Source of the DNA: an uncultured Gammaproteobacteria bacterium
GTDB taxonomy: Bacteria > Pseudomonadota > Gammaproteobacteria > CAWCPV01
Reading direction: 5' to 3'
Length of the DNA: 64,000 nt
Assembly (NCBI GenBank): GCA_963797555.1
Contig: CAWCPV010000006.1
Coordinates: forward strand, 72,102-136,101
Made by a program: the position numbers and the translations under genes. The stretch's first letter is position 1, and every line of letters begins with the position of its first letter. The notes under the pieces were generated by a model that was not told the origin of the DNA, did not search any database, and saw nothing but the letters and a program-made list of their open reading frames with translations. Of this stretch, positions 1 to 34,054 are shown piece by piece.

Positions 1-104
1 ACACGCCGCCGCGCCCTCTGGAGGAGATCGAGGCGGACATCCGCGGCATCGAGAGGGATATCGTCCGCATGCTGGCGGAGGTGACCGGATCGAAGGTGCT
101 CTGA
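1..104 (+). CDS. 3' end of an upstream gene, probably type I R-M methylase subunit HsdM (partial)
   Basis: Frame 3 reads ...EEIEADIRGIERDIVRMLAEVTGSKVL* with stop at 102-104. hsdS and hsdR lie downstream but no hsdM is in the window. Only 33 codons are visible. Confidence 0.4.
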   Translation, partial: TPPRPLEEIEADIRGIERDIVRMLAEVTGSKVL

Positions 105-182
105 CGCGAAAAGTCGGCACGGATATCACAGATGCCGACATTATGTGTTGACACGCCCGTTTGTCCGACGCATATTGCAGGC

Positions 183-821
183 ATGTCACAACAGCGTGCC
201 GACAATTCGAGTCAATCCCCCAAGTCTTCGGAGCCCGTCGACCTGCTTCGCAGCGCCGCTCTGGGTGCCTTCTTCCGTCCGAGCCAGATCCATGCGGCAG
301 GACTATCGCGCGACCAGCTCCCGGCCCTCGTGCGATCGGGGAAGGTCGAACGAATCGGTCGCGGCCTCTACCGGCTCGCGGACGCCGAGCCGACCGAGAA
401 CTACTCCCTGGCGATGGCGTGCGCGCGGGTGCCGAACAGCATCGTCTGCCTGCTCTCCGCCCTGCGCGTCCATGGCATCGGCACCCAGGCACCGGCCGAG
501 GTCTGCCTCGCCATTCCGCACAAGGCGCGCATGCCGCGCCTCCCCGAACTCAAGCTGCGCGTCGTGCGCTTCAGCGGACCTGCTTGGACGTTCGGTGTAC
601 AGACGACCGCGTTCGAGGGCGTGCCGGCACGGATCACCTCCCCCGCGCGGACCGTGGCGGACTGCTTCCGGTTCGAGCGCCTCGTGGGGCCCGAGGCTGC
701 GATGGAAGCGCTGCAGGACGCCCTGCGACAGCGGAAGGTCACGATCCCCGAACTCTCGCGCGTGGCGGAGATCCTTCCGTCGCGCCGCCTCAGCGCCGCG
801 CTGGACACGAGGTTGATATGA
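183..821 (+). CDS. AbiEi-family type IV toxin-antitoxin antitoxin / transcriptional regulator
   Basis: N-terminal wHTH-like region (GKVERIGRGLYRLAD) and C-terminal TSPARTVADCFRF are typical of AbiEi. ATG at 183; an in-frame ATG at 132 is also possible. The stop overlaps the next start (ATGA at 818-821). Confidence 0.7.
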   Translation: MSQQRADNSSQSPKSSEPVDLLRSAALGAFFRPSQIHAAGLSRDQLPALVRSGKVERIGRGLYRLADAEPTENYSLAMACARVPNSIVCLLSALRVHGIGTQAPAEVCLAIPHKARMPRLPELKLRVVRFSGPAWTFGVQTTAFEGVPARITSPARTVADCFRFERLVGPEAAMEALQDALRQRKVTIPELSRVAEILPSRRLSAALDTRLI

Positions 822-1753
822 CTGCAGACGTGGCGGCGTCGGTCAGGGCCCGTCTCCTGAACCAGGCAAAGGCGAGCGGGGAGGAGTTCGAGCGAACCCT
901 GGCGCGCTTCGCCGCCGAGCGGCTGCTCTTTCGCCTCGGTGAATCCGCGGCGCGAGACCGTTGCATCCTGAAAGGCGCCAGCCTCCTTGCGGTATGGCTT
1001 CCGGATCCTTACCGGGCAACCCGCGATGTGGACGTGCTGCTCTCGGGACAGGCGGACGACGCCGCGATCCGGTCGCTGGTGGCGGAGATCTGCGCGATGG
1101 CCTGTCCCGAAGACGCCCTCCGCTTCGACCTCTCCAAGCTGGTCGTCGAGACGATCCGGCCCGAGGACGAGTACTCGGGCAAGCGCGCCCGCTTCCGCGC
1201 GTTCCTCGGCAACGCGCGGATCGCCGTGCAGCTTGACCTTGGCGTTGGCGACGCGTTGACCGTACAGCCCGAAGAGATCGTCTACCCGACGATGCTCGAC
1301 ACCCTGCCCCCGCCCCGGCTCCGCGCCTATCCGCGCGAGGCGTCCGTCGCCGAGAAGTTCGAAGCGATGGTGAAGCTCGACACGCGCAACAGCCGGATGA
1401 AGGACTTCCACGACATCTGGGCGCTTGTGGGCGCCTTCGAGTTCGATGGCCCGTCGCTCCAGAAAGCAATCGCGGCCTGCTTCGAGCGCCGGGGCACACC
1501 GTGGACCGATGAACTCCCGCGCGTCCTGACCCCGGCGTTCTACCAGATGCCGGATATGGAGACGCGCTGGCGGAACTACCGCGCGGCGGGTGCCGTGCTC
1601 GCCCCGCTGCCGCCCCAGTTCGCGGTCATCGGAGAGCGCATCATCGAGTTCCTTGGCCCTGTCCGGAGCAGCATCGCCGCGGGAGAGGCGTTCGAGCGTG
1701 CCTGGGCGCCGGGAGGCCCTTGGATGTCTGCCGGACAAGAGAACACAGAATGA
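818..1753 (+). CDS. AbiEii-family nucleotidyltransferase toxin (DUF1814)
   Basis: 311-aa ORF with LKGASLL...RATRDVDVL, the nucleotidyltransferase core typical of AbiEii. Translationally coupled to AbiEi (ATGA) and to the next gene (ATGA at 1750-1753). Confidence 0.8.
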   Translation: MTADVAASVRARLLNQAKASGEEFERTLARFAAERLLFRLGESAARDRCILKGASLLAVWLPDPYRATRDVDVLLSGQADDAAIRSLVAEICAMACPEDALRFDLSKLVVETIRPEDEYSGKRARFRAFLGNARIAVQLDLGVGDALTVQPEEIVYPTMLDTLPPPRLRAYPREASVAEKFEAMVKLDTRNSRMKDFHDIWALVGAFEFDGPSLQKAIAACFERRGTPWTDELPRVLTPAFYQMPDMETRWRNYRAAGAVLAPLPPQFAVIGERIIEFLGPVRSSIAAGEAFERAWAPGGPWMSAGQENTE

Positions 1754-3618
1754 TCGGCGCCAGCTTCGACAGCACCAAGACCCCGCTTCACGACCTGCTC
1801 GCACGGGCCGACGGCGGCAAGCTCCAGCTTCCGGATTTTCAGCGCGGCTGGGTCTGGGACGACGACCGCATCCGGAGCCTCCTCGCCAGCGTGTCGGTCT
1901 CTTTCCCGATCGGTGCCGTGATGTTGCTCGAAACGGGCGGCGAGCACGTCCGCTTCAAGCCGCGGCCCCTCTCCGGAACGCACGAGCGGCTGCGCCAGAT
2001 CGCGCCCGAGACGTTGATCCTCGACGGCCAGCAGCGGCTGACATCGCTCTACCAGGCGCTGATGAGCGCGGTGGTGGTCGAGACCAAGGACGCCAAGGGC
2101 AAGCCGATCCGCCGCTGGTACTACATCGACATGAAGCAGGCCGTGACTAACGACGACGACCGCGAGGACGCGGTGCTGAGCGTCCCCGAGGACCGCCAGG
2201 TCAAGGCGTTCGGCGGCGAGATCGCTTTGGACGTGACGACACCCGAGCGGGAGTACGGAGCCGACCTCTTTCCCGTGAACCGGATTTTCCAGAGCGCGGA
2301 GTGGCGTCAGGCTTACAACAAGCACTGGAACTACGTACCCGAGAAGATCCAGCTCTACGACGAGTTCGAGCGCGAGGTCATCAAGCGGTTCGAGCAGTAT
2401 CAGGTGCCGGTGATCGAGCTGAAAAAGGAGACACCCAAGGAGGCCGTCTGCCTGGTCTTCGAGCGCGTGAACACGGGGGGCATGGCGCTCAACGTGTTCG
2501 AGCTGCTCACGGCCGCCTTTGCCGCGGACGATTTCCAGCTCCGCGATGACTGGAACGCCCGCGAGCAGCGCCTGAAGGGCCAGCACCCCGTGCTGCGCAA
2601 CCTCCAGAGCGACGACTTCCTCCAGGCCATCTCGCTCCTCGTGACGCAGAGGCGCCGCCACAACACGCTCGCGGCCGGCGTCGCCGTCGACAAGGCGCCC
2701 GGCATCAGTTGCAAGCGCAAGGACATCCTGAAGCTCGAGGTCGCCGACTGGCAGGCATGGGCCGAACGCGTCGAGGCCGGTTTCGTGCGCGCCGCGCGCT
2801 TTCTGTACGGGCAGAAGATATTCAAGGCGCGGGATCTGCCCTACCGCACCCAGCTCGTGCCGCTCGCCGCGATGTTTGTGAACCTCGGCCAGGACGGTGA
2901 GACCGAGGGTGCCCGCCAGCGGATCGCCCGATGGTACTGGTGTGGGGTTCTCGGCGAGCTTTACGGCGGCGCCATCGAGAGCCGCTTCGCGCGCGACCTG
3001 CCGGAGGTGGTCGCCCTGGTGCGCGGCGAGGGGAGCGAGCCGATCAGTATCCAGGAGTCGAGCTTCCAGGCCAACCGGCTGCTGACGCTGCGGACGCGCA
3101 ACAGCTCGGCCTACAAGGGAGTCTACGCGCTCCTGATGCGCGACGGCGGGCGGGACTTCCGCACCGGCGAGCCGATCGAAGCCCAGACCTTCTTCGACGA
3201 CAAGGTCGACATCCACCACATCTTCCCCGAGAAGTGGTGCAAGGCGGCCGGCATCGAGCCCGGCACCTACAACAGCGTGATCAACAAGACGGCGCTCGCC
3301 GCCAAGACCAACCGCCAGATCGGCGGCCGCGCGCCGTCGAAGTACCTGCCTGCGATCGAGAAGGCCGCTGGTGTTGGTACCGAGCGTATGGACGAGATCC
3401 TGCGTTCGCATTGCATCGCACCGGGAGAACTGCGGGCCGACCGCTTCTGGGAGTTCTACGCTGCACGCGCCGAGGCGCTGCTCCAGCGCATCGAGGCCGC
3501 GACGGGCAAGACCATCACGCGCGAGCCGGAACTTTTCCGCGCCGGGGTCGTCGCCGAAGTCTACGACGAGGGGCCGGAGGAATGGGACGCCGAGGAGCCG
3601 ATCGAGGAGGCGTCGTGA
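1750..3618 (+). CDS. DUF262 (ParB-like, DGQQR) plus DUF1524 (His-Me finger) protein, GmrSD/BrxU-like type IV restriction nuclease family
   Basis: N-terminus has LPDFQRGWVW...ILDGQQRLTSLY. C-terminus has VDIHHIFPEKW...NKTALAAKTNRQIG. ATG at 1750 overlaps the AbiEii stop. The gene's stop overlaps the hsdS GTG (GTGA at 3615-3618). Confidence 0.8.
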   Translation: MIGASFDSTKTPLHDLLARADGGKLQLPDFQRGWVWDDDRIRSLLASVSVSFPIGAVMLLETGGEHVRFKPRPLSGTHERLRQIAPETLILDGQQRLTSLYQALMSAVVVETKDAKGKPIRRWYYIDMKQAVTNDDDREDAVLSVPEDRQVKAFGGEIALDVTTPEREYGADLFPVNRIFQSAEWRQAYNKHWNYVPEKIQLYDEFEREVIKRFEQYQVPVIELKKETPKEAVCLVFERVNTGGMALNVFELLTAAFAADDFQLRDDWNAREQRLKGQHPVLRNLQSDDFLQAISLLVTQRRRHNTLAAGVAVDKAPGISCKRKDILKLEVADWQAWAERVEAGFVRAARFLYGQKIFKARDLPYRTQLVPLAAMFVNLGQDGETEGARQRIARWYWCGVLGELYGGAIESRFARDLPEVVALVRGEGSEPISIQESSFQANRLLTLRTRNSSAYKGVYALLMRDGGRDFRTGEPIEAQTFFDDKVDIHHIFPEKWCKAAGIEPGTYNSVINKTALAAKTNRQIGGRAPSKYLPAIEKAAGVGTERMDEILRSHCIAPGELRADRFWEFYAARAEALLQRIEAATGKTITREPELFRAGVVAEVYDEGPEEWDAEEPIEEAS

Positions 3619-4973
3619 GGGCGGCGAAGAACACCGAGCGTGCGGCGCGGCCAGAGCGTTTCAGGTCCTATCCGGGCTACAAGGACTCGGGGGTCGAGTG
3701 GTTGGGGGAGATTCCCGCGCACTGGGAGGTCGCGCCCGTCTATGCGCGGTACCAGATAGCACTTGGAAAGATGCTCGATGCCAAGCGGGTGACCGGCGAG
3801 TCTTCCGGGCGATACTTGCGCAATATCGATGTCCAATGGGACGCGGTGAACACAGAAGGGCTGCCGGAGATGGACTTCGCCCCGGGGGAGCGCGACCGGT
3901 ACCTGATTCGCCCGGGCGACCTGCTCGTTTGCGAGGGTGGCGAGGTCGGTAGAACCGCAATCTGGGGTGGGCAAATCGAGGAGTGCTTTTACCAGAAGGC
4001 GATCCACCGGGTAAGACCGCATTCGGACAAAGAGGCGCCGCGCTTTTTCTACTACCTTATGTACACTCTGGCAAAGCGTGGTGTATTCGTCGCGGGCGGG
4101 AACCCGAACACGATCGATCACCTCACCGCCGTGCAACTGAGGCATTACCGCCTTCCGTTCGCCCCGACTCAAGAACAACGTGCCATCGCCGCCTTCCTCG
4201 ACCGGGAGACGGCGAGGATCGATGCGCTGGTGGCGAAGAAGGAGCGGCTGATCGAGCTGCTCCAGGAGAAACGCACCGCCCTCATCACCCGCACCGTCAC
4301 CAAGGGCCTCGACCCGAACGTCCCCATGAAGGACTCCGGCGTCGAGTGGCTGGGGGAAATTCCGGCGCATTGGGAGGTCAGGAAGACGACCTGGATATTC
4401 ACGATTGGGAGTGGAACGACGCCCCGGTCTGAGGATCCCGCTTACTACGGTGGTGAGACGCCTTGGATCACCACATCTGAGCTTCGCGAGTCGGAAGTGG
4501 TCGCAACAGAGAAGAACGTCACTGGGGACGCGGTTAGAGACCACCCGAGCCTGAAGGTTCATCCCAAGGGGAGTGTCGCAGTGGCGATGTACGGTGCGAC
4601 GATTGGGCGTCTCGGAATCCTGGGCGTTCCCGCGACAGTTAATCAGGCTTGCTGTGTCTTTAGCAGGCCCAGGGGTATCGAGACGTGGTACTGGTTCTAT
4701 TGGCTGCAGATGCGGCGGCCGTATCTAATCTCGCTTGGCTACGGCGGCGGTCAACCGAACCTCAGCCAGGATCTCTTGAGATCGCTCCGCGTCCCGACGC
4801 CGCCCCTTCTCGAGCAGCGCGCCATCATTTCCTTTCTCGATCTGGAGGCGGCGCGGATTGACGCCCTCATTGCCAAGGTCCGCGAAGCCATCGAGCGGCT
4901 CAAGGAACTGCGTACCGCCCTCATCTCCGCCGCGGTGACAGGCAAGATCGACGTGCGGAAGGAGGTCGCATGA
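3615..4973 (+). CDS. hsdS: Type I restriction-modification specificity subunit HsdS
   Basis: Two target-recognition halves each start with DSGVEWLGEIPAHWEV. Two conserved helices are present (FLDRETARIDALVAKKERLIELLQEKRTALIT and FLDLEAARIDALIAKVREAIERLKELRTALIS). GTG start at 3615. Confidence 0.85.
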   Translation: MRAAKNTERAARPERFRSYPGYKDSGVEWLGEIPAHWEVAPVYARYQIALGKMLDAKRVTGESSGRYLRNIDVQWDAVNTEGLPEMDFAPGERDRYLIRPGDLLVCEGGEVGRTAIWGGQIEECFYQKAIHRVRPHSDKEAPRFFYYLMYTLAKRGVFVAGGNPNTIDHLTAVQLRHYRLPFAPTQEQRAIAAFLDRETARIDALVAKKERLIELLQEKRTALITRTVTKGLDPNVPMKDSGVEWLGEIPAHWEVRKTTWIFTIGSGTTPRSEDPAYYGGETPWITTSELRESEVVATEKNVTGDAVRDHPSLKVHPKGSVAVAMYGATIGRLGILGVPATVNQACCVFSRPRGIETWYWFYWLQMRRPYLISLGYGGGQPNLSQDLLRSLRVPTPPLLEQRAIISFLDLEAARIDALIAKVREAIERLKELRTALISAAVTGKIDVRKEVA

Positions 4974-5328
4974 CTCGAATTGCCGTCAAACGGAAATTGG
5001 TGCACCAGGCACGCCAGAGGGTTGGCCGGAGCTTTGAGGCCCTTACACGGAAGTTGCCGAGGCTTCAGTGCGGCGCGAGCGTGCCCTGCTTGGAGCCGTC
5101 AGTCGACTGACGCTCTGCAGACGGTCCTCACCGGCAGTCCGCGGGGCCGTTGTCTTCACCGAAGCCCGCTGACGCAAATAGCTCGGCGGCTTGTTTTCGG
5201 AGGCGCTAACATCCTCGCAGCCAGCGAAGGTGGTTGTCTCCGGCTGGGGTTGTTGGTTAGACTTCACCATTGAAGTCTTAATAGCACTGCGGCTTATTCA
5301 GAGTTTCTGAACAGCGGGGCCTAGCGTC

Positions 5329-6492
5329 GTGCAGCGCGGGGAAACCGGTCGCTACGAGGTCACCAGCGTTGGGGGCGAGCAGGTCCGCGCCTTCGTGCCG
5401 GCCCCGCTGCCGCCAGCCCCGCCGCTCGTCTTGGACGGTCCACTCCAGCAGACGCTCGAATCCGCTGTGCTTGCGGTCGGGCGGCTCGACGGCGTCTCGA
5501 CCCTGCTGCCCGACAAGGCGCTCTTTCTCTATGCCTATGTGCGTAAGGAGGCGGTGCTCTCTTCCCAGATCGAAGGGACGCAGTCGTCGCTCTCGGACCT
5601 ACTGCTCTTCGAGCTAGACGAGGCGCCGGGCGTTCCTCTCGATGACGTCGTCGAAGTCTCGAACTACGTCGCGGCCCTGGAGCACGGGCTGGCACGCCTG
5701 CGGGAGGGCTTTCCGCTCTCCAATCGACTCGTCCGCGAGATCCACGGCGTGCTGTTCTCGCGCGGGCGCGGCAGCGCCAAAAATCCCGGTGAGTTCCGCC
5801 GCTCGCAGAACTGGATCGGCGGCAGCCGGCCCGGCAATGCCGCCTTCGTGCCTCCGCCCCACACCGTCGTGCCCGACTGCATGGCGGCGCTCGAGCGTTT
5901 TCTTCACGCCGAGGGCGACGGCCTGCCCGTTCTGGTGCGCGCCGCAGTGGCGCACGTCCAGTTCGAGACGATCCACCCCTTCCTCGACGGCAACGGGCGT
6001 GTTGGACGTCTGCTCATCACCTTCCTGCTCTGCGATGCCGGCCTGCTGCGGGAGCCGCTTCTGTACCTGAGCCTCTATCTGAAGCAGAACCGGACGGCAT
6101 ACTACGACCTGCTCGACCGAGTGCGGCGCACCGGTGACTGGGAGACCTGGCTTGCATTCTTCCTGGAGGGGGTAAGGCAGACGGCTGAAGGCGCGGTCTC
6201 GACCGCGCAGCGGTTGGCCGAAACGTTCACGGCCGATCGGGCGAAGATAGAACCGGCCGGCCGCCGGGCCGGCTCGGCGCTACGTGTGCACGAGGCGCTG
6301 AAGAGGCGGCCGATCCTCTCCATGCCCGAGGTCTGCCGAAGCACGGGGCTGTCCTTTCCGGCCGCCTCGTCGGCGATGGACCTGCTCGCAGAGTTCGGAA
6401 CGGTGCGGGAGCTGACCGGGAAACGTCGGAACAGGCTCTTCGTGTACGAACGGTACCTCGCCATCCTCAACGAGGGCACAGAGGCGCCATGA
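5329..6492 (+). CDS. Fic/DOC family protein (AMPylase-type) with internal inhibitory helix and C-terminal wHTH
   Basis: Fic motif HPFLDGNGRVGRLL and an N-terminal inhibitory-type motif SSQIEGT. GTG start at 5329 follows a 355-nt ORF-free gap. The stop overlaps the hsdR ATG (ATGA at 6489-6492). Confidence 0.85.
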   Translation: MQRGETGRYEVTSVGGEQVRAFVPAPLPPAPPLVLDGPLQQTLESAVLAVGRLDGVSTLLPDKALFLYAYVRKEAVLSSQIEGTQSSLSDLLLFELDEAPGVPLDDVVEVSNYVAALEHGLARLREGFPLSNRLVREIHGVLFSRGRGSAKNPGEFRRSQNWIGGSRPGNAAFVPPPHTVVPDCMAALERFLHAEGDGLPVLVRAAVAHVQFETIHPFLDGNGRVGRLLITFLLCDAGLLREPLLYLSLYLKQNRTAYYDLLDRVRRTGDWETWLAFFLEGVRQTAEGAVSTAQRLAETFTADRAKIEPAGRRAGSALRVHEALKRRPILSMPEVCRSTGLSFPAASSAMDLLAEFGTVRELTGKRRNRLFVYERYLAILNEGTEAP

Positions 6493-9400
6493 GTCCCGAG
6501 ATCTCCGAGCGCTCCTTCGAGCAGGCCATCGAGTGCGGGCTGCTCCGGTATGGCCCGGACGCCCGCGCCGGGGACTCGACCGCCGTCCGGGAGACGCCCC
6601 CGCCCTACGGCGAAGCCGTACCGGGCGACTACCGGAAGCGCTCGCCGGAGGACTACGACCGCGCGCTGTGCCTGCTGCCGCGCGACGTCGCGGACTTCGT
6701 CCTCGCCACGCAGCCGAAGGAATGGGAGAAGCTCAAGCAGCACCACGGCGCCGAAACCAAGGAGCGGTTCTTGAAGCGCCTCGCCTCGGAGATCGAACGG
6801 CGCGGCGCGCTCGACGTGCTGCGGAACGGCATCAAGGACTCGGGCTGCAAGTTCCGGCTCGCCTACTTCCGCCCCGCCAGCGGGCTCAACGAGGAGACCC
6901 GGCGCCTGCACGCGGCGAACCTGTTCGCGGTGGTGCGCCAGCTCCGTTACAGCGGGAAAAACGAGAAGAGCCTCGACCTGGCACTGTTCCTGAACGGGTT
7001 GCCGGTCTTCACTGCCGAGCTGAAGAACCCCCTCACCGGCCAGGATGTCGAGGACGCCATCCGACAGTACAAGAGCGACCGCGACCCGCGCGAGCCGCTC
7101 CTCGCCCACGGCCGCTGCCTCGCGCACTTCGCGGTGGATCCGGACCTGGTCTACGTGACCACCCAGCTCGCCGGGCCGAAGACGCGTTTCCTCCCCTTCA
7201 ACCAGGGCAAGTTCGGCGGCGCCGGCAACCCGCCCGTGCCGCCCACCCGGGGGGGCTACGCGACCGCGTACCTCTGGGTGGAGACCTGGGCGCGCGACAG
7301 TGTGCTCGACCTCGTGCGCCAGTTCATCCATGAGGTCGAGGAGGAGGACGAGAAGGGGCGCAAGACCGGCAAACGCTTCCTGATCTTTCCGCGCTACCAG
7401 CAGCTCGACGCCGTCCGCCGGCTGGTGGCCCACGCCCGCCAGTACGGGGCGGGGCAGCGCTATCTCATCCAGCACTCGGCTGGCAGCGGCAAGAGCTTCA
7501 CCATCGCCTGGCTGGCCCACCAGCTCTCGACGCTCCACGACGCGGCCGACCGGCGGGTCTTCGACTCCATCGTGGTCGTCACCGACCGGCGCGTCCTCGA
7601 CCGGCAGCTCCAGACCACCATGCGCCAGTTCGAGCAAACCCTCGGCGTGGTGGAGAACATCGACACCACCTCGCGCCAGCTCAAGCAGGCTCTGGAGTCG
7701 GGGAAGACCATCATCGTGACGACGCTCCAAAAGTTCCCGGTGATCGCGCGGGAGATAGGCGAGCTTCCGGGGAGCCGCTTCGCCGTTATCGTGGACGAGG
7801 CGCACTCGTCGCAGTCGGGAGAGAGCACCAAGAGCCTCAAGTCGGTGCTGGCCTCCGCGAGCCTGGAGGAGGCGGAACGGGAGGAGGCCGCAGCAGAGAC
7901 TCCCGAGGAGGAGCTGGAGAACACGGTCCTCGCCGAGATGGAGAAGCGGGGCCGGCTCCCCAACCTCTCCCTGTTCGCCTTCACGGCGACCCCCAAGCCC
8001 AAGACCCTCGAGCTCTTCGGCACGAAGCGCCCCGACGGCAGGTTCGCGCCCTTCCACCTGTACAGCATGCGCCAGGCCATCGAGGAGGGATTCATCCTCG
8101 ATGTCCTGGAGACCTACACCACCTACAAGGCATACTGGCGGCTCCTCAAGAAGATCGAGGACGACCCCCGTTACGACAAGAACAAGGCGCAGCACCTGCT
8201 GAAGTCGTTCGTGGAGCTGCACCCGCACGCCATCAACGAGAAGGTGCGGATCATGGTCGAGCACTTCGCCGCCCAAGCGCAGAACGAGATCGGCGGGAAG
8301 GCCAAGGCCATGATCGTGACGCGGTCGCGGCTGCACGCGGTGCGCTACCGGCTGGCGCTGGACCGTTATGTGAAGGAGAAGGGGTATCCGTTCAGGGCGC
8401 TGGCCGCCTTCTCGGGCGCCGTGCAGGACGGCGGACTGGGCTACACCGAGGCGGAGATGAACGGCTTGTCCGAGAGGCAGACCGCCAAGACCTTCGAACG
8501 CCCCGAGTACCGTTTCCTCATCGTGGCCAACAAGTTCCAGACCGGCTTCGACCAGCCGCTGCTGCACACCCTGTACGTGGACAAGAAGCTCGGCGGGGTG
8601 AACGCCGTGCAGACCCTGTCACGGCTGAACCGCATCCACCCCGGGAAGCGCGGGACGATGGTGCTGGACTTCGCCAACGAGGCCGACGCCATTCAGGCGG
8701 CGTTCGAGCCATACTACGAGACCACGCTGCTCTCGGAGGCGACGGACCCCAACCTCCTCTACGAGACGCAGAGCCGGCTCCTCGCCTTCGGGGTCTATAC
8801 CGAGGCGGACGTGGACCGCTTCGCGAAGGTCTATTTCGACCGCAAGGCCACGCAGGACCAGCTCTATGCGGCCCTGGCCCCGGTGACGGCGCGCTTCTTC
8901 GGGGAGCTGTCCGAAGAGGAGCGGCACGACGTCCGCGGCCAGCTCACCGACTACGTGCGGCTCTACGCCTTCCTGGCCCAAGTGCTGACCTTCGCCGACA
9001 CGGACCTCGAGAAGCTCTACGTGTTCGCGCGCCACCTGCGGCGGCTCCTGCCCTCCGATCAGGTCGAGCTTCCCCGGCGAGGTGCAGCAGAACATCGACA
9101 TGGAGTCCTACCGCATCCAGCAGACGGGGAGCGGGAAGATCGCGCTGGAGCGCAAGACCGGCCTGCTCGACCCGATGGGGACGAAAGACCATCCCGGGCC
9201 GGGACCGGAGCAGATCGAGCCACTATCCCGGATCATCGCCGAGCTGAACGAGCGCTTCGGGCTGAATCTCGGCCCCGAGCACCGAGTCACGCTCGGCCAG
9301 ATGATCGAGAAGCTGGACGACGACCCGGCCCTCGACGCCAGCGCCCGGGCCAACACGCGCGAGAACGTGAGGCTCACCTTCGACCAGAAGGTGGAGGACG

Positions 9401-10032
9401 TGATCCAGGAAATCGTCGACTCGAACTTCGATCTGTACAAACGCATCACCGACGACCGGGCGTTCGGCCAAGCGGTCAAGAACTTCCTTTTCGATCAGTA
9501 TCTGCGGACCCACCGGCAGGCGGAGGAGCTGATCAAACGAGGCGAGTCCCGGACCCTCGAGTTCAAGTCCACGCTGCGCTGGAGCCTCCGCGAAAACCGG
9601 ATGGACGACAAGGCCGTCACCCATGCCGTCCTCAAGACCATCGCGGCGTTCCTGAACACCGAGGGCGGCGACCTCCTCATCGGTGTCGCGGACGACGGAT
9701 CGGTGGTCGGCATCGAGGTCGACCGGCTCGACAGCGACGACAAGTTCATGCGCCACCTGGCGCAGGCCGTCCGCAACGGCCTGGGCGACCGTGCCAGCAC
9801 CTGCATCGACCCGAGGACCCAGGTCGTCCGGGGAAAGACCGTGTGCCTGGTCACCTGCCAGCGCAGCCCGGAGCCCGTGTTCCTCAAATGGAAGGGAACC
9901 GAGGAGGGCCCCGGCGGAGATTTCTACGTGCGGAGCGGGCCGGGAAGCGTGAGACTCCGCCCCGAAAGCGCTGCGGAATACATCCGGACGCGGTTTCCGG
10001 AGGCGCCGAAGCGTGGTGAAGATTCGCCGTAG
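6489..10032 (+). pseudogene. hsdR: Type I restriction endonuclease subunit HsdR with C-terminal AlbA_2/Schlafen-like domain; reading frame broken by 1 nt at a C4 run (9072-9075)
   Basis: HSDR_N-like N-terminus and helicase motifs (HSAGSGKS, VDEAHSSQSG). The frame starting at 6489 turns into Arg/Pro-rich nonsense after ...LPSDQVELP. The +1 frame continues with GEVQQNIDMESYRIQQ... and ends in GESRTLEFKSTLRW...FLNTEGGDLLIGVADDGSVVGI, which is AlbA_2-like. Removing one C restores about 1180 aa. Confidence 0.8.
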
Positions 10033-10612
10033 GAGCCGGGTACGGTGTATGTGAGCGCCCGCTGCGGCCGGATGCCGCCGTACCCCACCAGCAACCCGCC
10101 AAGATTGCCACCTGGATTTTGCGTTCCGTAAGGTTGGCTTGGCGCGACTCCAAGCACCCCATAGCTGAGCCGCCCACGGCGGCCTTGTCCCTTCGAGAAA
10201 TACGCATTGCCAATCCCCTCAGGTACGCGCGCAGCATGCACGCGGAACACGCTTCCGCCGGCGCAAGCCGTGCCGTCGCGGGACACCCGTCGCACACGCT
10301 CCTGGGCGATGCTCGGTTCGCCGAGTGGGCGTTGCCGACCGACTGAAAACCGAACAAGATTCAAGTTGTGCCGCCCCAGTGTTTGAACGTATCAAACACG
10401 CCCGCGCCCTGAGCGGCTCATTGGGGTCAGGCGAGAGGATGCGGCCGGATGCTGCTGACCGTCTGGTTTCGACCCAGAGCAGCCATTCGTGTCCGACACG
10501 ACACGGCAGCCGCACGGCTGCGCTGCCCCAGTGGTCCCCGCCGCTTGAGTTGTGGCAAGCTAGTGAAGCCGTAACCGGTTTGTCATGACATCAAAAAGCG
10601 AGGAGAGCCCCC

Positions 10613-12661: not shown

Positions 12662-13276
12662 ATGCCTCAGGACAGGCTGGGGTTGACCGTGTCCTCCGTC
12701 CCCCACAACGCGTATCCGTTGGGTGCGACGCCCGACCAGCGCTCGCGCGGTCATGTCGAGGCGATTCGCGCCGAGCAGATCCGGCTGCTGCTGCGCCAAG
12801 CCCCGTTTGGCCTCAGCGCTGTCGCCATCAACGCCGTCATCCTCGTCGCCGTCATGTGGGGCGAGATACCGCAAGTCCTGCTACTCACCTGGTTGGCGCT
12901 CACCCTGCTGCTTACCCTGGCGCGTTACCTGCTAACACGGGCTTACTCCCGCGCACAGCCCATGCCCTCCGAAGCGGCGCGCTGGGGGTTCTGGTTCGTG
13001 CTCGGCGCGGGCGTCTCGGGGCTCACCTGGGGCGTGGCCGGCGCCCTCTTCTTCACCCGGCAAAGCTATGCCCACCAGGCATTCCTGGCGTTCGTGCTCG
13101 CCGGCATGTCGGCGGGCGGTGTGTCCACGCTATCGTCCTATCCCGGCACTTACCCCGCCTTCCTGCTGCCGGCCCTGCTCCCCTATACGGGACGGGTTTT
13201 TGCCCAAGGGGGTATCCTGCATACCGCCATGGGGCTGATGCTGGTCCTGTTCTCTGGCTTGATGCTGTGCCTCTGA
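12662..13276 (+). pseudogene. N-terminal multi-TM sensor domain of a signalling protein (GGDEF or kinase type), truncated at about 13266 by ISL3 sequence
   Basis: About 5-6 hydrophobic helices with no output domain. The last codons and the stop come from the abutting ISL3 fragment. Confidence 0.45.
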
Positions 13277-14285
13277 GGGCGGGCTCGGTCTTGATCTCCT
13301 GGCGGCGCACCGCGTCGACCGCCTCGTTGGCGAGCTTGATCACGTGGAAGGCATCGAAGCTCACCGTAGCCTGAGGCAGATGCTTGGCCACCCCGGCGCG
13401 GTAGGCGGCGGACATGTCGATGCACACCTGCTCGATGGCCTGCGGGTCGCCGCCGTGCGCCTTGAGGTCGGCGGCGAAGGCCGCCACGGTGCTCTGGTCG
13501 CGGCCCTCGCAGGCGAACAGCAGGCGTTTTCCCGTGAGGTCATGGAACAGGCTGATGTAGTGCTGTCCACGCCGGGCAGCGGTCTCGTCCAGGCCCACAG
13601 CGCTCACCTGCGAGTGGTCCTCCTGAGCACGGGCCCTGCCTACGTAGTGATCGAGCACCGCCCACAGGCGCTCATCGCCCACGCCCAGGTGCCGAGCCAC
13701 GGTCGCCACCGGCATGGCCTGGCACAGCGTGACCACCAGCGCCTCCATCAGCGCCGTGAAGCCACTCTGTGCGCGCGCCCACGGCGGGTTCGACCTGGGT
13801 CGTCTTGCCGCAGGCCTCGCAGCGCACCCGCGGCAGATGCGCGTGCAGGTACGCCCGTGACTTAAAGAAGCTCAGGTGCTGCCAACTGCGCTCCCGGGTG
13901 TCGTGCACCGCCTGGCCTTGCACTCCGCAGGCCGGGCAAGCAAAGCGGCTGCCCTTGGCAAACGCCACATCGAGGTCGATGCGCCCAGCCTCGGGGTCGA
14001 AGCGCACGTCGGTGACCTCCCAAGGCGCCGTCAGGCCCAGTGCCGTGGTAAACAGATGCGTGGGCCGCACGGTGCTCCCCCCTTGGATGACGACCTGTGG
14101 ATTTGTGGACGAGCCCTGCGGAGCGGCCCGCGTCCCAAGGACCGTGTGGACAACCTCCCGGTTGCCCACACTCGCGGGCCTCTCGCCCACAACCCCACAA
14201 GCCCAACCACAAGATGTTGTGATAAGCGACCGGTCAGGGCAGATGCTACTTCACCACCGCGACCCACACAATTTCCGAAAGAGCC
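13267..14285 (-). mobile_element. ISL3-family element, copy A: left IR plus 5' two-thirds of the transposase, frameshifted and internally truncated
   Basis: The terminal IR GGCTCTTTCGGAAATTGTGTGG (reverse complement) ends at 14285. The transposase starts at GTG 14070 (VRPTHLFTTALGLTAPWEV...) and shifts frame near 13770. Homology to copy B (48730-51348) stops after ...KTEPALRGT at 13267. Confidence 0.75.
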
Positions 14286-15127: not shown

Positions 15128-16998
15128 GCAGAACTCCTGACATGCGCTACCTAACCGATTGAGAAGGCGCTATAATCGATGCGGGTATCGAAATATAAAT
15201 ACGAGACCAGAGGAATGCTATGCCAGGCACCATTGAGCTTCCCTTGCTGCCCGAACAGGCTGTGACATTGGGTCCGCGGTTGACGGTCATCGAAACGCCC
15301 AAGGAACTCGTGTTCATGAATGCCTCCGGTCCGTTGATGAGCTGCGCGCGCACGGATACGACGGCTAAGTGTTACCTCGGGGCGGTGTTCATGACGCAGG
15401 GTTTAGCGAAGGGTGAGGACTTGGCGGCGGTGTTGGGTGTTCACCGCTCGACGGTATTTCGCAACCAGAAGCTGTATCGCGAAGGGGGTCTTGATGCCAT
15501 ACGCGATGGCCGAGGCCATGGTGCGCCGCGTCGTGGGCATAAGCTCACCGATGAGGTTTTGCCGATCGCTCAGGCGTGCTTGGACCAAGGGTGCTCGCAG
15601 TCGCAGGCCGCGCGTGCGCTCGGTGTGAGTGAGACGGCGGTGCGCCATGCGATCAAGACCGGACGGCTGCGCCGCTCGCCAACAGGCGGCGCAACTAGCC
15701 GCGGCGTTGACCGCCCAGTGGGCGCAGGGGGAGCCCGATGAGCTGGGCATACTGTACGTCGACGGTCACGTCCATGCCTACACGGGGCGCAAGCATCCGC
15801 TGCCTAAGACGTTGGTGCAGAAACGCCGCCAGTGTCTGCCCGCCTCGACGGATGTTTGGGTGCATAACGGAGCGGCCGAGCCGGTGTTCTTCGTCACCAG
15901 CCCCCTCAATGGACACCTCTTGGCGCTGATCGAGCAGGAGGTCATTCCCCAGGCGCGCCAGCAGATCGGCCCCGACCGGACGCTGACCTTGGTGTTTGAC
16001 CGTGAGGCTTGGAGCCCCCAGTCCTTCCAGCAGTGGCACAGCCAAGGGGCCGAAGTCATCACGTATCGCAAGGGTAAACAAACGCCCTGGGACCCGGAGG
16101 ACTTCCGCCCCTTAAGCGTCGAGCACCACGGTAAGTCTGTGACCTATAGTCTGGCCGAGTGCAGCGTGCAGGTCATCGCTGCCAATCGCAAGCAACCCGC
16201 CTTGTGGATGCGCGAGATCCGCCGCTTATGCAAAAACGGACATCAGAGCGCGATCCTGACGACCCGGCAGGACTTACCTGCCGCAGAGATCGCCCATCGC
16301 ATGTTCGGCCGTTGGCGCCAAGAGAACTTCTTCAAATACCTGCAGGACGAATTCAACATCGACCACTTGAGCACCTATGCCACCGAACCAGCCGATCCTG
16401 AGCGGATGGTTCCCAATCCTGAGCGCCGAGCGCTGATAAAATCGCTCCAGGCAACCAAGGCGCAGCTCGGCAGAGCCTACGCCCAGCGTGGCAAGCACCA
16501 ACGTAACAGGGCATCGACGGCGAAGCAAGAGAAGGCGACAGAGGCCATCGAACGATTGGAAAGGCAATGCGAGCAACTCAGCGAACGCATCAACGCGATG
16601 GAAAAGCGCGTGCCATTGAAGAGCATTTATGAGGCGGACAAGATCGTACATCACGAACGCGAACGAAAAACCATTACCCGGCTCATCAAGGTCGTCGCTT
16701 ATCGCAGTGAGAGTTGTCTCGCGAGCATTGTCGAACCCTTTTTCGTGCGCCACGACGACGAAGTTCGCGCCTTCCTCAAAGCCGTGTTCTGCTTACCCGG
16801 CGAGATTATCCCGGATTACCAGCGCCATGAATTGCGGGTGCGTCTCTACGGCTTGGCCAATAATCGATCTCAACAAGCTCTCATCGCTCTTTGCGAATAT
16901 CTGAATACCCAGCAGATGAAATACCCTGGCACCCACCTGCCCCTGGTCTACGACACCGCCCAGTCGCATTGAATTTAGCGCCAAGTCAGGAGTTCTGC
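15128..16998 (+). mobile_element. IS element of unassigned family, bounded by about 22-bp inverted repeats
   Basis: Left end is GCAGAACTCCTGACATGCGCTA (15128-15149). The right end, reverse-complemented, is GCAGAACTCCTGACTTGGCGCTA (16976-16998). Confidence 0.7.
15220..16972 (+). pseudogene. Transposase of the 15128-16998 IS, split into an HTH ORF (15220-15741) and a DDE-type ORF (15629-16972) in the +1 frame
   Basis: HTH segments (STVFRNQKLYREGG, SQSQAARALGVSETAVRHAI) are followed in another frame by ILYVDGHVHAYTG...FGRWRQENFFKYLQDEFNIDHL. A +1 offset is not the usual programmed -1 shift, so mutation or error is likelier. Confidence 0.6.
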
Positions 16999-18610
16999 GC
17001 TGTGACTGAGACGACCGTTCCTGCTGGGTCTATAAGCCGTTACGACTCATGCGCCAGGTTTTCGCAGTGCCTTCGCAACCTGAGTCGGCGGTCATCCACA
17101 CGAGAGGAGTGCGGCGTGCAGATTTGGGAGTGAGATGGGGACAAAACAGGCCGGTCGGTACAGGTACACAGCTTGGCCGGGCGCCGCTGGGAGGCAGCGT
17201 CTGAGCAATTAGGGGTTGTAAGTTTCCCCAGGGTGAAGTTGCAGGCCGTAGCGCGAGCGAACCTACGAGTAGCCTCGTTACGATGAGCTGGAGATGCCGA
17301 CCCTGTGGTCAGAAGGGGAAGGCCGCTGTCGGTGGAATGGGAAAACGGAAGCGTTCCATCGGATCTCCCGGGGTAGCAGGGGCGGCATGCAGCGGAAGAG
17401 AAGCAGAGCAGGGCGGGAGACCCGCGGCGGTGGGGCACAGGGCCGCCAACCGCTAGAAAGGTGCACGGACAACTCCTTTCGCGGGACTTCAACCCGCCAG
17501 AGAAACAGACGGTTACGGCATACGGCCAGAGAGAACGATTTCTTCCGCCAGGCGCTGGGTATCGAGCGGGTGCCTTCGGCGGAAAAGCTGAGGCAGCGCC
17601 TCGAACGAGCACGCAGCGGCGATGCGGGGGTATCGACGAGGCCAATATTGAGTTCATGGTCAACGCCAAGGTGCCGGTGAGCCCCCTGAAGACCGCCCAT
17701 GCGCCCGTGGACATCGATGTCTTTCCCATGGACAACTCCGGGACCCAGAAAGAAGGGGGCTCGCGCACCTACCCCGGCTATGACGGTTATGCGCCGATCG
17801 CGGCCTATGTGGGAGCCGAAGGCTGGAGCCTCGCCTGTGAGCTGCGCGAAGGCAAGCAGCACAGCCAGAAGGAATTCAGCTACGTCTGGGAGCGCATCCT
17901 GCCGCGCGCCAGGCGCCTGACGGCCCTGCCTTTGCTGGTACGCCAGGACAGCGCCCACGACGCACTGGAGAATCGGCTGAGGTCTGTGCAAGAGGAGGTG
18001 GACTTCATTATCCAGTGGAACCCCGAGGCGAGGACCCTGCGCAGTGGCTTGAGCGCGCCGAGCACCAAGGGGTGTGGGAGACACCCCGACCCGGCAAGCG
18101 GATAGCGCTGTTCAGCGTCATCGAGGAGCACCCCCATCCAGGCCATACCTACTACGTTCGCCGGGTCATGCGGGTGACCGAGCGCACCATCGACAAATAG
18201 GGCCAAATGCTGCTGGTGCCGGAGCTTGAGCTCGAGGGCTGGTGGACCTCCCTGGCCTACTCTGACCATGCGATCCTCGCCCTGTACCAGGACCACGGCA
18301 CCTCCGAGCAGTTTCACGAGACGAGTTCAAGACCGATCTCGACATCGAGCGGCTGCCCTCCGGGAACTTTGACACCAATGACCTACTGCTGGGCTTTGCC
18401 GTATTCGCCTACAACATCCTGCGCTTCATCGGTCTCATCGGGCTGACCGGCGAGGTCGCCCCCCTGCGCCACCCAGCCAAGCGCAGGCGGCTCCGGACCG
18501 TCATCCAGGAGCTGATGTATCTCGCCGCCCGGTTGGTCGCCACCGCCCGGAGGCTCTGTCCCGGCTTCCGCGCCTTCGAGCAAGTGTATTGCCAACTCGC
18601 CTTCGGGTAG

Positions 18611-19696
18611 CTAGTGTAGTGCTTCATTCTGTTTAGAACTTAAACGTGCGTTGGCGCGGATGACCTTCTGCAGGATGTCCTTAGCCTTGGCGGTCCAGAT
18701 GAAGGGTTTGGGATTGGCGTTGTGGGCATCGACATAGCGGTTGATGGCATGGATCAACTCGGGGACGCTTCGAAACACGCCACGGCGCAACCGATCCACA
18801 GTCAGGTCGCGGAAGAATCGCTCGACCATGTTCAACCAGGATGCTGAGGTGGGCGTGAAATGGATGTGGAAACGCGGGTGTTTTCCCAGCCATTTCTGAA
18901 CGTTGGGATGTTTGTGGGTGGCGTAGTTGTCGCAGACCAAGTGCAGTTCCTTGTCCTTGGGCGTCTCGCGGTCGATTTGGCGCAGGAAGGTGAGCCACTC
19001 CGTGTGGCGATGGTGCGGCTCGCAGCGGGCAATCACGGAACCCTCCAAGGTGTTCAGGGCAGCAAACAGTGTCGTGGTGCCATGGCGCTTGTAGTCATGG
19101 GTCATGGTCGCAGCCCGCCCCTTCTTCAGCGGCAGGCCAGGTTGGGTACGATCCAGCGCCTGAACCTGACTCTTCTCGTCGCAGCACAACACCAAAGCAT
19201 GCTCCGGGGGGGACAGATACAGCCCGACGATGTCCTCCAACTTCTCGGTGAATTTCGGGTCGCGCGATACCTTGAAGGATTCGACACGATGCGGCTTCAG
19301 CCCATGGGCATGCCACACGCGCAGCACCGTGGTGTCGCTCACTCCCATTTCCTTAGCCAGGGTCCGCGTACTCCACTGTGTCGCTGCTAAGGGCTGGGTC
19401 TGAGTCGTGCGTCGCACGATCTCGGCGGCATCCACCTTGGGCTGACGACCTCCGCGCGGCAGGTCACACTCGATGGCCGCCAGCCCGCCTTGCGCATAGC
19501 GCTCCCGCCAACGCCCAACCTGCACACGCCCAATCTTGAGTTCCGCCGCGATGGCCTTGTTCTCCATGCCCACCGCCGCCAACAGCACAATGCGCGCTCG
19601 GCGGGCCAGCCTCACACTCGTGGTGTTCGAACGCGACACACGCCTCAGGCTCCGCTGTTCTTCCGCGCTCAGTCGGACCATCGGGGCTACTCGCAT
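18611..19696 (-). CDS. IS630-family transposase (361 aa, apparently intact)
   Basis: N-terminal HTH regions and DDE region (LVLCCDEKSQVQAL...LVCDNYATHKH...WLNMVERFF). The stop codon overlaps the target TA. Confidence 0.85.
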   Translation of the reverse strand: MRVAPMVRLSAEEQRSLRRVSRSNTTSVRLARRARIVLLAAVGMENKAIAAELKIGRVQVGRWRERYAQGGLAAIECDLPRGGRQPKVDAAEIVRRTTQTQPLAATQWSTRTLAKEMGVSDTTVLRVWHAHGLKPHRVESFKVSRDPKFTEKLEDIVGLYLSPPEHALVLCCDEKSQVQALDRTQPGLPLKKGRAATMTHDYKRHGTTTLFAALNTLEGSVIARCEPHHRHTEWLTFLRQIDRETPKDKELHLVCDNYATHKHPNVQKWLGKHPRFHIHFTPTSASWLNMVERFFRDLTVDRLRRGVFRSVPELIHAINRYVDAHNANPKPFIWTAKAKDILQKVIRANARLSSKQNEALH

Positions 19697-33861: not shown

Positions 33862-33937
<76 letters not shown>

Positions 33938-33977
33938 TCCACGCGGGGCCGGGCAATGCCCGGCCCGCTTGTGCCCC

Positions 33978-34054
33978 GCCCCGGTAGCTCAGCAGGATAG
34001 AGCGTCCCCCTCCTAAGGGGAAGGTCAGCCGTTCGAGTCGGCTCCGGGGCGCCA
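33978..34054 (+). tRNA. tRNA-Arg (anticodon CCT)
   Basis: 77-nt cloverleaf: acceptor GCCCCGG/CCGGGGC, anticodon stem TCCCC/GGGGA with loop CTCCTAA, T-arm AGCCG-TTCGAGT-CGGCT, encoded CCA. Confidence 0.95.

Follow-up and report, generated by a model that had tools for sequence, protein, structure and literature searches.

Why does an operon for a type I restriction-modification (R-M) system carry three further modules of toxin or nuclease type between its own genes, and do these modules form one coupled unit with it? The locus that raises this question occupies positions 1 to about 10032 of the window, by which the whole stretch of 64,000 nucleotides (nt) of contig CAWCPV010000006.1 that was analyzed is meant. 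All its genes lie on the plus strand in the order hsdM (3' end), abiEi, abiEii, a DUF262 gene, hsdS, a 355 nt interval, fic and hsdR, as had been stated in an earlier reading of this DNA (the original prediction). That prediction regarded the operon as a scaffold, the embedded genes as translationally coupled to it, the R-M complex as a possible guard of several effectors and the combination as one not known to have been described as a unit. The scaffold idea holds in so far as the hsd operon carries co-oriented, tightly packed modules in an arrangement that recurs widely; its coupling, guard and novelty parts do not. We consider it probable that the locus arose by the embedding of defence genes in a type I R-M operon and forms a combinatorial defence island. 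The carrier would be a horizontally mobile hsdM-hsdS-hsdR operon, whose HsdR has an AlbA_2 C-terminal domain, with two insertion slots, one between hsdM and hsdS (slot 1) and one between hsdS and hsdR (slot 2). Slot 1 would here hold the abiEi-abiEii toxin-antitoxin/abortive-infection pair and a GmrSD-like single-gene nuclease, and slot 2 a SoFic-type AMPylase together with the stump of a lost helix-turn-helix (HTH)/M78 gene.

Families were assigned by Pfam and PADLOC hidden Markov model (HMM) searches of the locus proteins, which bore out the proposed AbiEi, AbiEii, DUF262 (GmrSD-like), HsdS, Fic and HsdR identities. The features of the locus (protein lengths in amino acids, aa) are:

1-104, plus strand: 3' end of hsdM, last 33 codons and TGA at 102-104 (frame-3 translation ending EEIEADIRGIERDIVRMLAEVTGSKVL before the stop)
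113-203, plus strand: predicted abiE promoter/operator region, with a first inverted repeat (IR1), -35, -10 and a second inverted repeat (IR2)
183-821, plus strand: abiEi, antitoxin/repressor, 212 aa (PADLOC AbiEi, 1.8e-57)
818-1753, plus strand: abiEii, DUF1814 nucleotidyltransferase toxin, 311 aa (Pfam AbiEii, 2.4e-40; PADLOC, 1.5e-93)
1750-3618, plus strand: gene of the GmrSD-like protein, 622 aa (Pfam GmrSD_N, 1.9e-29)
3615-4973, plus strand: hsdS, 452 aa, two target-recognition domains (PADLOC Specificity_I, 1.6e-113)
4970-5110, plus strand: 46-codon stump of a lost HTH/M78 (IrrE-like) gene, ATGA overlap with the hsdS stop
5250-5328, plus strand: conserved fic upstream element, two short inverted repeats followed by GGGG and GTG
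5329-6492, plus strand: fic, SoFic-type class II Fic AMPylase, 387 aa, GTG start (PADLOC SoFic, 1.2e-117; Pfam Fic_N and Fic)
6489-9072, plus strand: hsdR, N-terminal 861 codons (Pfam HSDR_N, ResIII, SWI2_SNF2, T1R_D3-like)
9072-9077, plus strand: hsdR frameshift site, one extra base in CCCCGG
9073-10032, plus strand: C-terminal third of hsdR (helical C-domain and SLFN_AlbA_2), in the +1 frame

Assortment of cargo among related loci

To compare the locus with its relatives, HsdR was used in a scan at one genome per species, which yielded 398 relatives. The best 80 of these were searched by tblastn with the window proteins and by Pfam on the residual open reading frames (ORFs), and the 57 loci that were complete from the hsdM end through the hsdR start formed the census set. 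The best 80 relatives (L001-L080) are 76-87% identical to the window HsdR at the protein level and stem from metagenome-assembled genomes (MAGs) assigned to more than 12 phyla, including Acidobacteriota, Gemmatimonadota, Planctomycetota, Bacillota, Nitrospirota and Pseudomonadota. For a single type I R-M family this is unusually broad and suggests a recent horizontal spread. A megablast search of positions 1-10100 against plasmids returned nothing beyond HsdR matches of about 100 nt, and look-ups of the exact Fic and GmrSD-like proteins found neither of them on record.

In the 57 loci HsdR keeps 76-86% identity to that of the window, whereas the interval between hsdM and hsdR varies in content and measures 1.6-8.6 kb. 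AbiEi is present in 51 (89%) and AbiEii in 41 of them, nearly always between hsdM and hsdS. Fic occurs in 22 loci, in 21 of which it lies between hsdS and hsdR; the remaining one has no recognisable hsdS, which leaves the slot undefined. A GmrSD-like gene was found in seven loci, between hsdM or abiEii and hsdS, and two loci (L069, L074) are bare hsdM-hsdS-hsdR operons. More than ten families make up the other cargo, among them DUF3644, AAA_14/DUF4143, Macro, DUF5655, Mrr_cat, M78, a protein kinase, AAA+DUF6414, AAA+subtilase and HicB. In the window, as in these loci, co-oriented non-system genes lie between the genes of the system and vary among homologous loci, which is the pattern of embedding. 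The type I gene set is represented by the HsdM C-terminus, HsdS and the HsdR domains, the full-length hsdM extending beyond the window. The hsdM end shares 59-93% identity with the C-terminus encoded by the gene that precedes abiE or hsdS in related loci, and this gene was HsdM wherever it was compared with a full-length HsdM query (from L007).

AbiE, GmrSD and Fic were found together in three of the 57 loci, which is close to the figure for independent assortment (about 1.9, on multiplying the single-module frequencies). Full triples are carried by L022 (Nitrospiraceae), whose GmrSD-like gene is an orthologue (83% identity), by L013 and L003, whose GmrSD genes belong to another subfamily, and by L109, a metagenome contig. 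While the HsdR proteins fall into a single cluster at a threshold of at least 75% identity, AbiEii forms 18 and Fic five clusters at 65%. Pairwise identities are correlated with Spearman coefficients of 0.24 for HsdR and AbiEii and 0.22 for HsdR and Fic, versus 0.64 for AbiEi and AbiEii. At the DNA level, blastn revealed a mosaic with sharp borders: L007 corresponds to window positions 1-1697 and 5253-9995 without the GmrSD gene, and L030 to 1749-3730 and 5330-9999 without abiE. One break, at 1697-1703, falls where abiEii encodes its conserved PGGPW end, and no other sampled locus combines AbiE of the L007 type with the GmrSD gene of the window. The GmrSD-like protein, used as query in a metagenome scan, retrieved 197 relatives. 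Its orthologues of at least 80% identity reside in the R-M family of the window, in two other type I families (HsdM 48-50% and about 30% identical) and at sites with no hsd genes within 4-8 kb, where RHS, HerA with an SF1 helicase, an integrase with a Cas3-like helicase, or carB are the neighbors. Taken together, these comparisons show cassettes that, as far as their sequences tell, assort independently of each other and of the carrier, with AbiEi and AbiEii travelling together.

The original prediction had named homologous loci in which the embedded genes come and go independently, with flanking repeats of their own, as evidence that would speak against it. Independent turnover is what the census shows; the flanking repeats were absent, as the prediction itself had noted, no meaningful ones being detected around the embedded genes. 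An 18 nt inverted repeat at 197-214 and 4971-4988, which exactly brackets abiEi-hsdS, was rejected as chance, as it shows no extension and scores 26 against a shuffle maximum of 27.

The four 4 nt overlaps on which the coupling claim had been built (ATGA at 818, ATGA at 1750, GTGA at 3615 and ATGA at 6489) are present exactly as described, and one more ATGA, the fifth such overlap, lies at 4970, where the end of hsdS meets an ORF of 46 codons. Between hsdM and abiEi there is a spacer without overlap, which houses the conserved putative promoter/operator. Among related loci, 4 nt overlaps were found in 17 of 20 fic-hsdR junctions, including those with Fic variants at 36-47% identity, in 16 of 34 hsdS-hsdR junctions (the remaining 18 being more than 30 nt apart) and in all 11 abiEi-abiEii junctions; at hsdS-fic and hsdM-abiEi the distance always exceeds 30 nt. 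The hsdR gene itself starts with the ATGA at 6489 (ATG AGT), which hsdS and fic overlap alike. Likewise, the ATGA at 1750 is the start of the GmrSD-like gene (ATG ATC), which is kept in L030 although the gene follows a 69 nt spacer after hsdM there. The 4 nt overlap is the ordinary operon junction in this R-M family. Since the starts carry ATGA whatever precedes them, tight packing is typical of cassettes in this operon and is no evidence against insertion. The conclusion that the embedded genes are coupled and hence not independent insertions is contradicted by the census, the blastn mosaic, the 18 AbiEii lineages and the occurrence of the GmrSD-like gene elsewhere; moreover, the ATGAs at 1750 and 6489 are each part of the gene that starts there, and abiE and fic have upstream regions of their own. 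The comparison of loci thus shows a carrier with two slots and co-oriented, apparently autonomous cassettes, of which abiE and fic have putative control regions of their own.

The same slots also hold genes other than abiE, the GmrSD-like gene and fic. They were seen at L065 (3865-5885, minus strand), L067 (5140-8710, minus strand), L072 (7355-8530), L033 (7408-8607), L027 (4878-6065) and L048 (6660-7874) and comprise AAA+DUF6414, AAA+subtilase, a Ser/Thr kinase, a Macro-domain protein and AAA_14/DUF4143 ATPases. ORFs of 280-740 aa without a Pfam match lie in the slots of L054, L058, L064 and L070. These other slot genes are candidate defence genes by embedding.

The modules and their putative control regions

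In the spacer upstream of abiEi, the inverted repeat IR1 (GTCGGCA-N13-TGCCGAC, 113-139) is followed by a -35 element (TTGACA, 148-153) and, at a spacing of 17 nt, a -10 element (CATATT, 171-176). The second repeat, IR2 (177-203, two mismatches), overlaps the abiEi ATG at 183. This putative promoter is the top sigma-70 match on the plus strand of positions 1-10600 (10/12 positions), and in an alignment of six loci of different phyla the repeat boxes, the -35 and the -10 are invariant while the flanks vary. The abiEi ORF is open from an ATG at 132, and because the promoter is conserved the ATG at 183 was chosen as the likely start. AbiE systems are autoregulated through inverted repeats over their own promoter (PMC3985639), and by this analogy a promoter function and a leaderless abiE transcript are predicted. 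Over the whole window the inverted-repeat pattern occurs three times versus 0.72 expected. The third, operator-like occurrence (two mismatches), at 5818-5844 within fic, is probably a chance match, given the GC-rich sequence.

AbiEi matches the Pfam families AbiEi_4 and AbiEi_3_N, and AbiEi_1 under its gathering score. AbiEii has the nucleotidyltransferase motif KGAS...DVDV at residue 52, and its nearest solved structure is AbiGII (9HLO, 1.8e-19). By HMM and motif the pair thus consists of AbiEi followed by an AbiEii/DUF1814 nucleotidyltransferase with its catalytic motif, as in AbiE. Ten loci (for example L014, L016, L050, L059, L061, L066 and L077) have abiEi without a recognisable full abiEii; the toxin gene seems to be lost more readily than that of the antitoxin/repressor, which would fit a regulatory role of AbiEi.

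The GmrSD-like protein matches the PADLOC models PDC-M55C (3.5e-25) and HEC-05 (8.7e-22). Its N-terminal DUF262 domain contains DGQQR at residue 92, and its C-terminal part a His-Me-type motif, DIHHIFP...N...N (D487-I-H-H-x-F-P, N512, N521); both are invariant in nine homologues. A search of the PDB with the single sequence gave no match, and the family profile reached BrxU (7P9K, 2.4e-8) and SspE in the N-terminal domain only. The C-terminal half was matched weakly, by HNH_4 at about 0.003 in seven of nine family members and by GmrSD_C at 9e-4 in one of nine, and in hhalign comparisons with bona fide GmrSD_C proteins the N-terminus alone aligned. Of the proposed DUF262/DUF1524 architecture, the DUF262 part was confirmed by the GmrSD_N match and the DUF1524 part is tentative. 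In contigs of 47-51% GC, the gene has a GC content at third codon positions (GC3) of 0.66-0.70 (L101, 2894-4759; L104, 5439-7304) next to genes with a GC3 of 0.33-0.62, which suggests a possible recent transfer of the GmrSD-like gene.

The hsdS gene starts with GTG, 6 nt downstream of GGAGG. The best full-length match of HsdS (3e-113) spans residues 17-447 of 452, Pfam Methylase_S is found in two stretches, and the central region (4173-4378) shares 88-96% DNA identity with most of the relatives listed while the target-recognition domains differ. The 355 nt interval downstream, formerly described as a gap, is not empty, as it contains the gene stump at 4970 and the conserved fic upstream element. 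The stump aligns from M1 to M1 with the start of a 380 aa Peptidase_M78 gene that comes after hsdS in L062 (47% identity over 45 aa, E 2e-9). Judged by this homology, the 46-codon ORF is the remnant of a lost cassette, a likely trace of cargo turnover in this lineage. For the rest of 4974-5250 no homologue was found among 160 related loci.

The fic upstream element contains the inverted repeats AGACTT..AAGTCT and TAATAGC..GCTATT. It is kept in 10 of 10 loci with a Fic at least 72% identical, independent of what lies upstream, and was found by nhmmer (2e-20 to 7e-11) only beside Fic proteins of at least that identity. With a weak consensus fold of -3.6 kcal/mol, it is better read as two DNA palindromes than as an RNA structure, and a regulatory role is predicted for it. 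The PADLOC SoFic match of the Fic protein spans positions 5-359 of 361 in the profile, and residues 38-382 align to the SoFic structures 3EQX/3ZCN at about 1e-31. The catalytic motif HPFLDGNGRVGR is located at residue 216 and the inhibitory SSQIEG at residue 78. Because its score lies under the NCBIfam equivalog cut-off (147 vs 550 bits), we regard it as a family member and not as an orthologue of SO4266, a protein whose own gene may lie in a type I R-M operon. Two candidates for a fic antitoxin were rejected: for an AS1-like small antitoxin downstream there is no room, since hsdR overlaps the fic stop, and the upstream 46 aa ORF is the M78-gene stump. More distant Fic proteins, of 58-67% identity, are encoded on plasmids next to a relaxase and immediately ahead of Hachiman genes. 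In L162 (Aminobacter plasmid pAA04, 7971-13372) a 59%-identical Fic directly precedes Hachiman HamA and a DEAD/DEAH helicase, and a TIR-domain gene adjoins them; SoFic-type genes may recurrently head other defence operons as well.

HsdR contains the nuclease motif D..ELK, Walker A GSGKS, DEAH and the helicase lobes. It matches TIGR00348 at 1.1e-60, under the curated cut-off, and its motor domain aligns to EcoR124I HsdR (2W00) at 1.6e-16. hsdR had been taken as one intact gene and is not: eight homologues align as CCGC-GCGAG where the window reads CCCCGGCGAG, the offset between the N- and C-terminal parts is 2584 nt versus 2583 nt (861 codons) in homologues, and both parts share one frame in all of about 70 homologues that cover the region. 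Past residue ~861 frame 0 is nonsense and the true continuation (..EVQQNIDMESYRIQ..) is in the +1 frame. The last ~320 codons, 69-83% identical to the in-frame C-termini of homologues, are thus out of frame, and, as the sequence reads, the intact HsdR of a type I R-M system is lacking. Work on EcoR124I is reported to show that the C-terminal domain of HsdR is required for assembly with M2S. If the frameshift is real, this copy would have lost restriction and kept its methyltransferase and the three embedded modules. A Schlafen/AlbA_2 domain (SLFN_AlbA_2, Pfam 4.7e-19), at 9544-9958 in the +1 frame, ends this HsdR family, as seen in the best 80 relatives.

Assembled in this way, the island would be transcribed in three parts, namely hsdM, from the abiE promoter through abiEi-abiEii-gmrSD-hsdS, and from the fic upstream region through fic-hsdR; the hsd genes would be co-transcribed with their cargo from internal promoters. 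The layers would act in parallel, each by the mechanism of its family: unmodified DNA would be cut by R-M and modified DNA, which R-M misses, by the GmrSD-like enzyme, and AbiEii and Fic would arrest the cell if infection proceeds. Cargo would be swapped by homologous recombination in conserved flanking sequence, namely in hsdM, in hsdR, in the constant parts of hsdS and at the 3' end of abiEii.

Weighing the alternatives

Several points weigh against the embedding of autonomous cassettes. No recombination sites or mobility genes that explain cassette movement were found. AbiEi in 89% of the loci, and Fic always directly upstream of hsdR with a nearly invariant 4 nt overlap, are stronger associations than a purely neutral hotspot predicts, and both would be compatible with a functional or regulatory coupling. 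Binning errors may affect the MAG taxonomy of the related loci, and the hsdR frameshift could be a sequencing error. As the C-terminal nuclease domain is weakly matched, activity and target of the GmrSD-like protein are uncertain, and the activities of all locus proteins are assumed from family membership.

An alternative that draws on these associations is regulatory coupling, in which an AbiEi-repressed promoter mainly drives hsdS, and hsdR where fic is missing, and the antitoxin controls the supply of R-M subunits in a manner likened to the C-proteins of type II systems. A conserved putative promoter/operator immediately upstream of abiEi, the unbroken overlaps from abiEi through hsdS (into hsdR in fic-less loci), the high frequency of AbiEi and its retention in the ten loci without recognisable AbiEii are all consistent with it. 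However, bare hsdM-hsdS-hsdR loci exist, and in L030, L107 and L108 hsdS has no abiE upstream, which implies that read-through from hsdM suffices; we regard this explanation as quite unlikely. It is also unlikely, in our judgment, that AbiE is a near-obligate, operon-integrated partner of the HsdR-AlbA_2 R-M clade, with an AbiEi-repressed, probably leaderless promoter that feeds hsdS (and hsdR without fic). If this were true, the antitoxin would set the R-M subunit supply, or the toxin-antitoxin pair would guard against the R-M operon being lost or inhibited, and the nearly invariant fic-hsdR overlap would tie HsdR synthesis to Fic translation.

A guard like that of PrrC, in which the R-M complex holds AbiEii, the GmrSD-like nuclease and/or Fic silent until a phage inhibits restriction, appears very unlikely. 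The fic gene occupies the slot between hsdS and hsdR in which prrC lies in EcoprrI, its overlap with hsdR persists in 17 of 20 loci, even where Fic is only 44-47% identical, and 51 of the 57 loci contain AbiEi. The tgvAB genes of Vibrio cholerae, on their own, protected 10-100-fold less than the whole cluster did (PMC11411939). However, the three embedded proteins are unrelated to PrrC, Pfam and PADLOC finding no ABC-ATPase or HEPN domain in them. The same GmrSD-like gene (at least 80% identity) sits with three R-M families and with none, and Fic has relatives outside R-M. Many AbiEii and Fic lineages within one HsdR lineage are hard to square with a co-evolved interface; such multiple pairings of carrier and cargo argue against one that is partner-specific. 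AbiE and SoFic are, moreover, controlled by their own antitoxin or inhibitory helix (PMC3985639, PMC12249575), and hsdR is frameshifted in the window. The sequence thus lends no support to an R-M complex that guards or licenses several effectors. That the locus is a decaying, largely non-functional remnant in an insertion sequence (IS)-rich region, whose toxin modules persist as addictive selfish elements, would fit the hsdR frameshift, the gene stump after hsdS, the split ISL3 transposase, other transposases and group II intron fragment immediately downstream and the further IS copies across the window, but is highly improbable, as all other frames are intact with catalytic motifs and ribosome-binding sites, hsdS is full length, the frameshift is a single base and possibly a sequencing error, and the methyltransferase and embedded modules would still work without HsdR.

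We therefore prefer to read the locus as a combinatorial island of embedded cassettes. As such it is a well-sampled example of how defence islands are assembled, an R-M operon of about 80% identity being found in many phyla with two slots and exchangeable cargo. It is useful for mining defence genes, owing to the unannotated and DUF cargo in the same slots, and it has a bearing on the tolerance of R-M operons for inserted promoters and toxins. The locus opens no new mechanism, the exciting guard idea being unsupported.

Downstream of the locus, an ISL3-family transposase is encoded on the minus strand at 13053-14190 in two overlapping ORFs (a Zn-ribbon part and an HTH and DDE part); its DDE domain breaks off after 106 of the 240 positions of the profile, making it a degraded IS copy. 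The GC content dips to 0.51 at 14.5-15.3 kb. A Transposase_29 gene (15629-16972), a group II intron D1-D4 RNA match (17146-17383, 72.9 bits, no reverse-transcriptase ORF being seen there), a DDE_Tnp_1_4 fragment (17461-18105) and an IS630-type transposase (18611-19696, minus strand) follow, and the region 15629-19696 looks like an IS graveyard. Tandem tRNA-Ala(CGC) and tRNA-Arg(CCT) genes at 33862-34054, with a Tn5-type transposase (38488-39822) and a DUF3987 protein (41720-43462, minus strand) beyond them, may mark an integrated element at tRNA genes. Further IS copies are located at 48803-50224 and 55432-56754.

Comparison with known embedded systems

In the original prediction PrrC was the only well-studied precedent for a toxin inside a type I R-M locus, which is outdated in view of TgvAB (PMC11411939), DarTG2 (PMC12255303), a survey of embedding (bioRxiv 10.1101/2024.01.29.577857) and the work of Makarova et al. 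2013 (PMC3632139). Nor is the kind of arrangement new, since embedding in R-M had already been described for PrrC, TgvAB and DarTG2 and under the term guilt-by-embedding. Makarova et al. reported extra genes co-expressed in R-M loci, with DUF262 in a Campylobacter type I locus (PMC3632139). According to the 'guilt-by-embedding' survey by Payne et al. (bioRxiv 10.1101/2024.01.29.577857), defence genes reside within type I R-M, BREX, DISARM and Hma systems, type I R-M embedding is frequent, embedded genes are co-oriented with the flanking system in 96.7%, and GmrSD-like genes are commonly embedded. The window resembles these cases in its extra co-oriented defence genes between host-system genes and in its GmrSD-like cargo, whose DUF262 protein matches the PADLOC models from that survey (PDC-M55C, HEC-05). 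In contrast, AbiE and SoFic are not named as type I R-M cargo in the accessible text and supplements of that survey. For the HsdR-AlbA_2 carrier clade and its two-slot census we found no description in the embedding literature.

The type I R-M system of V. cholerae harbors TgvAB, which is GmrSD-like and defends without HsdR restriction activity (PMC11411939). Like the window gene, it is of the DUF262 family and lies in a type I R-M operon; it is a modification-dependent nuclease proposed to complement R-M on modified phage DNA. It consists of two proteins, whereas the window has a single 622 aa protein whose C-terminal domain is weakly like DUF1524. That paper places RloF between hsdR and hsdS and calls the position of tgvAB similar, while the window gene lies between hsdM/abiEii and hsdS. 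DarTG2 in enteropathogenic Escherichia coli is located between hsdS and hsdR, at a site called a likely recombination hotspot (PMC12255303), and is thus a toxin-antitoxin defence module in the slot that corresponds to slot 2. It is controlled there by an upstream RptR repressor, whereas slot 2 of the window holds SoFic with its own upstream element, and the toxin-antitoxin pair of the window, AbiE, occupies slot 1.

The modules themselves can be compared with their free-standing relatives. AbiE (PMC3985639) has the same bicistronic, overlapping abiEi-abiEii with a DUF1814 nucleotidyltransferase toxin and its catalytic motif. In the AbiE of Streptococcus agalactiae, which is autoregulated, paired inverted repeats likewise bracket and overlap the promoter, but they follow a 23-3-23 pattern there versus 7-N13-7 here (PMC3985639), and the window operon does not end at abiEii but runs on into gmrSD and hsdS. 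SoFic, a stand-alone defence system and toxin (PMC12249575), is represented by the Shewanella oneidensis protein (PDB 3EQX/3ZCN), to which the window Fic is homologous over nearly its full length including the C-terminal domain, with both the catalytic HPFxDGNGRxxR and the N-terminal inhibitory SxxxEG. E. coli SoFic differs in that a gene for a 47 aa antitoxin (AS1) lies downstream (PMC12249575), where the window has the overlap with hsdR.

PrrC is the classic embedded guard, within the EcoprrI type IC R-M locus (PMC12707154, PMC3632139), and like the window cargo it is a toxic effector encoded inside a type I R-M locus. It is, however, an ABC-ATPase/HEPN tRNA nuclease kept inactive by the R-M complex, to which no window protein is homologous, and the comparative data for the window locus oppose partner-specific masking. 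Among these systems, the locus described here is a new and cargo-rich member of the embedded defence loci.

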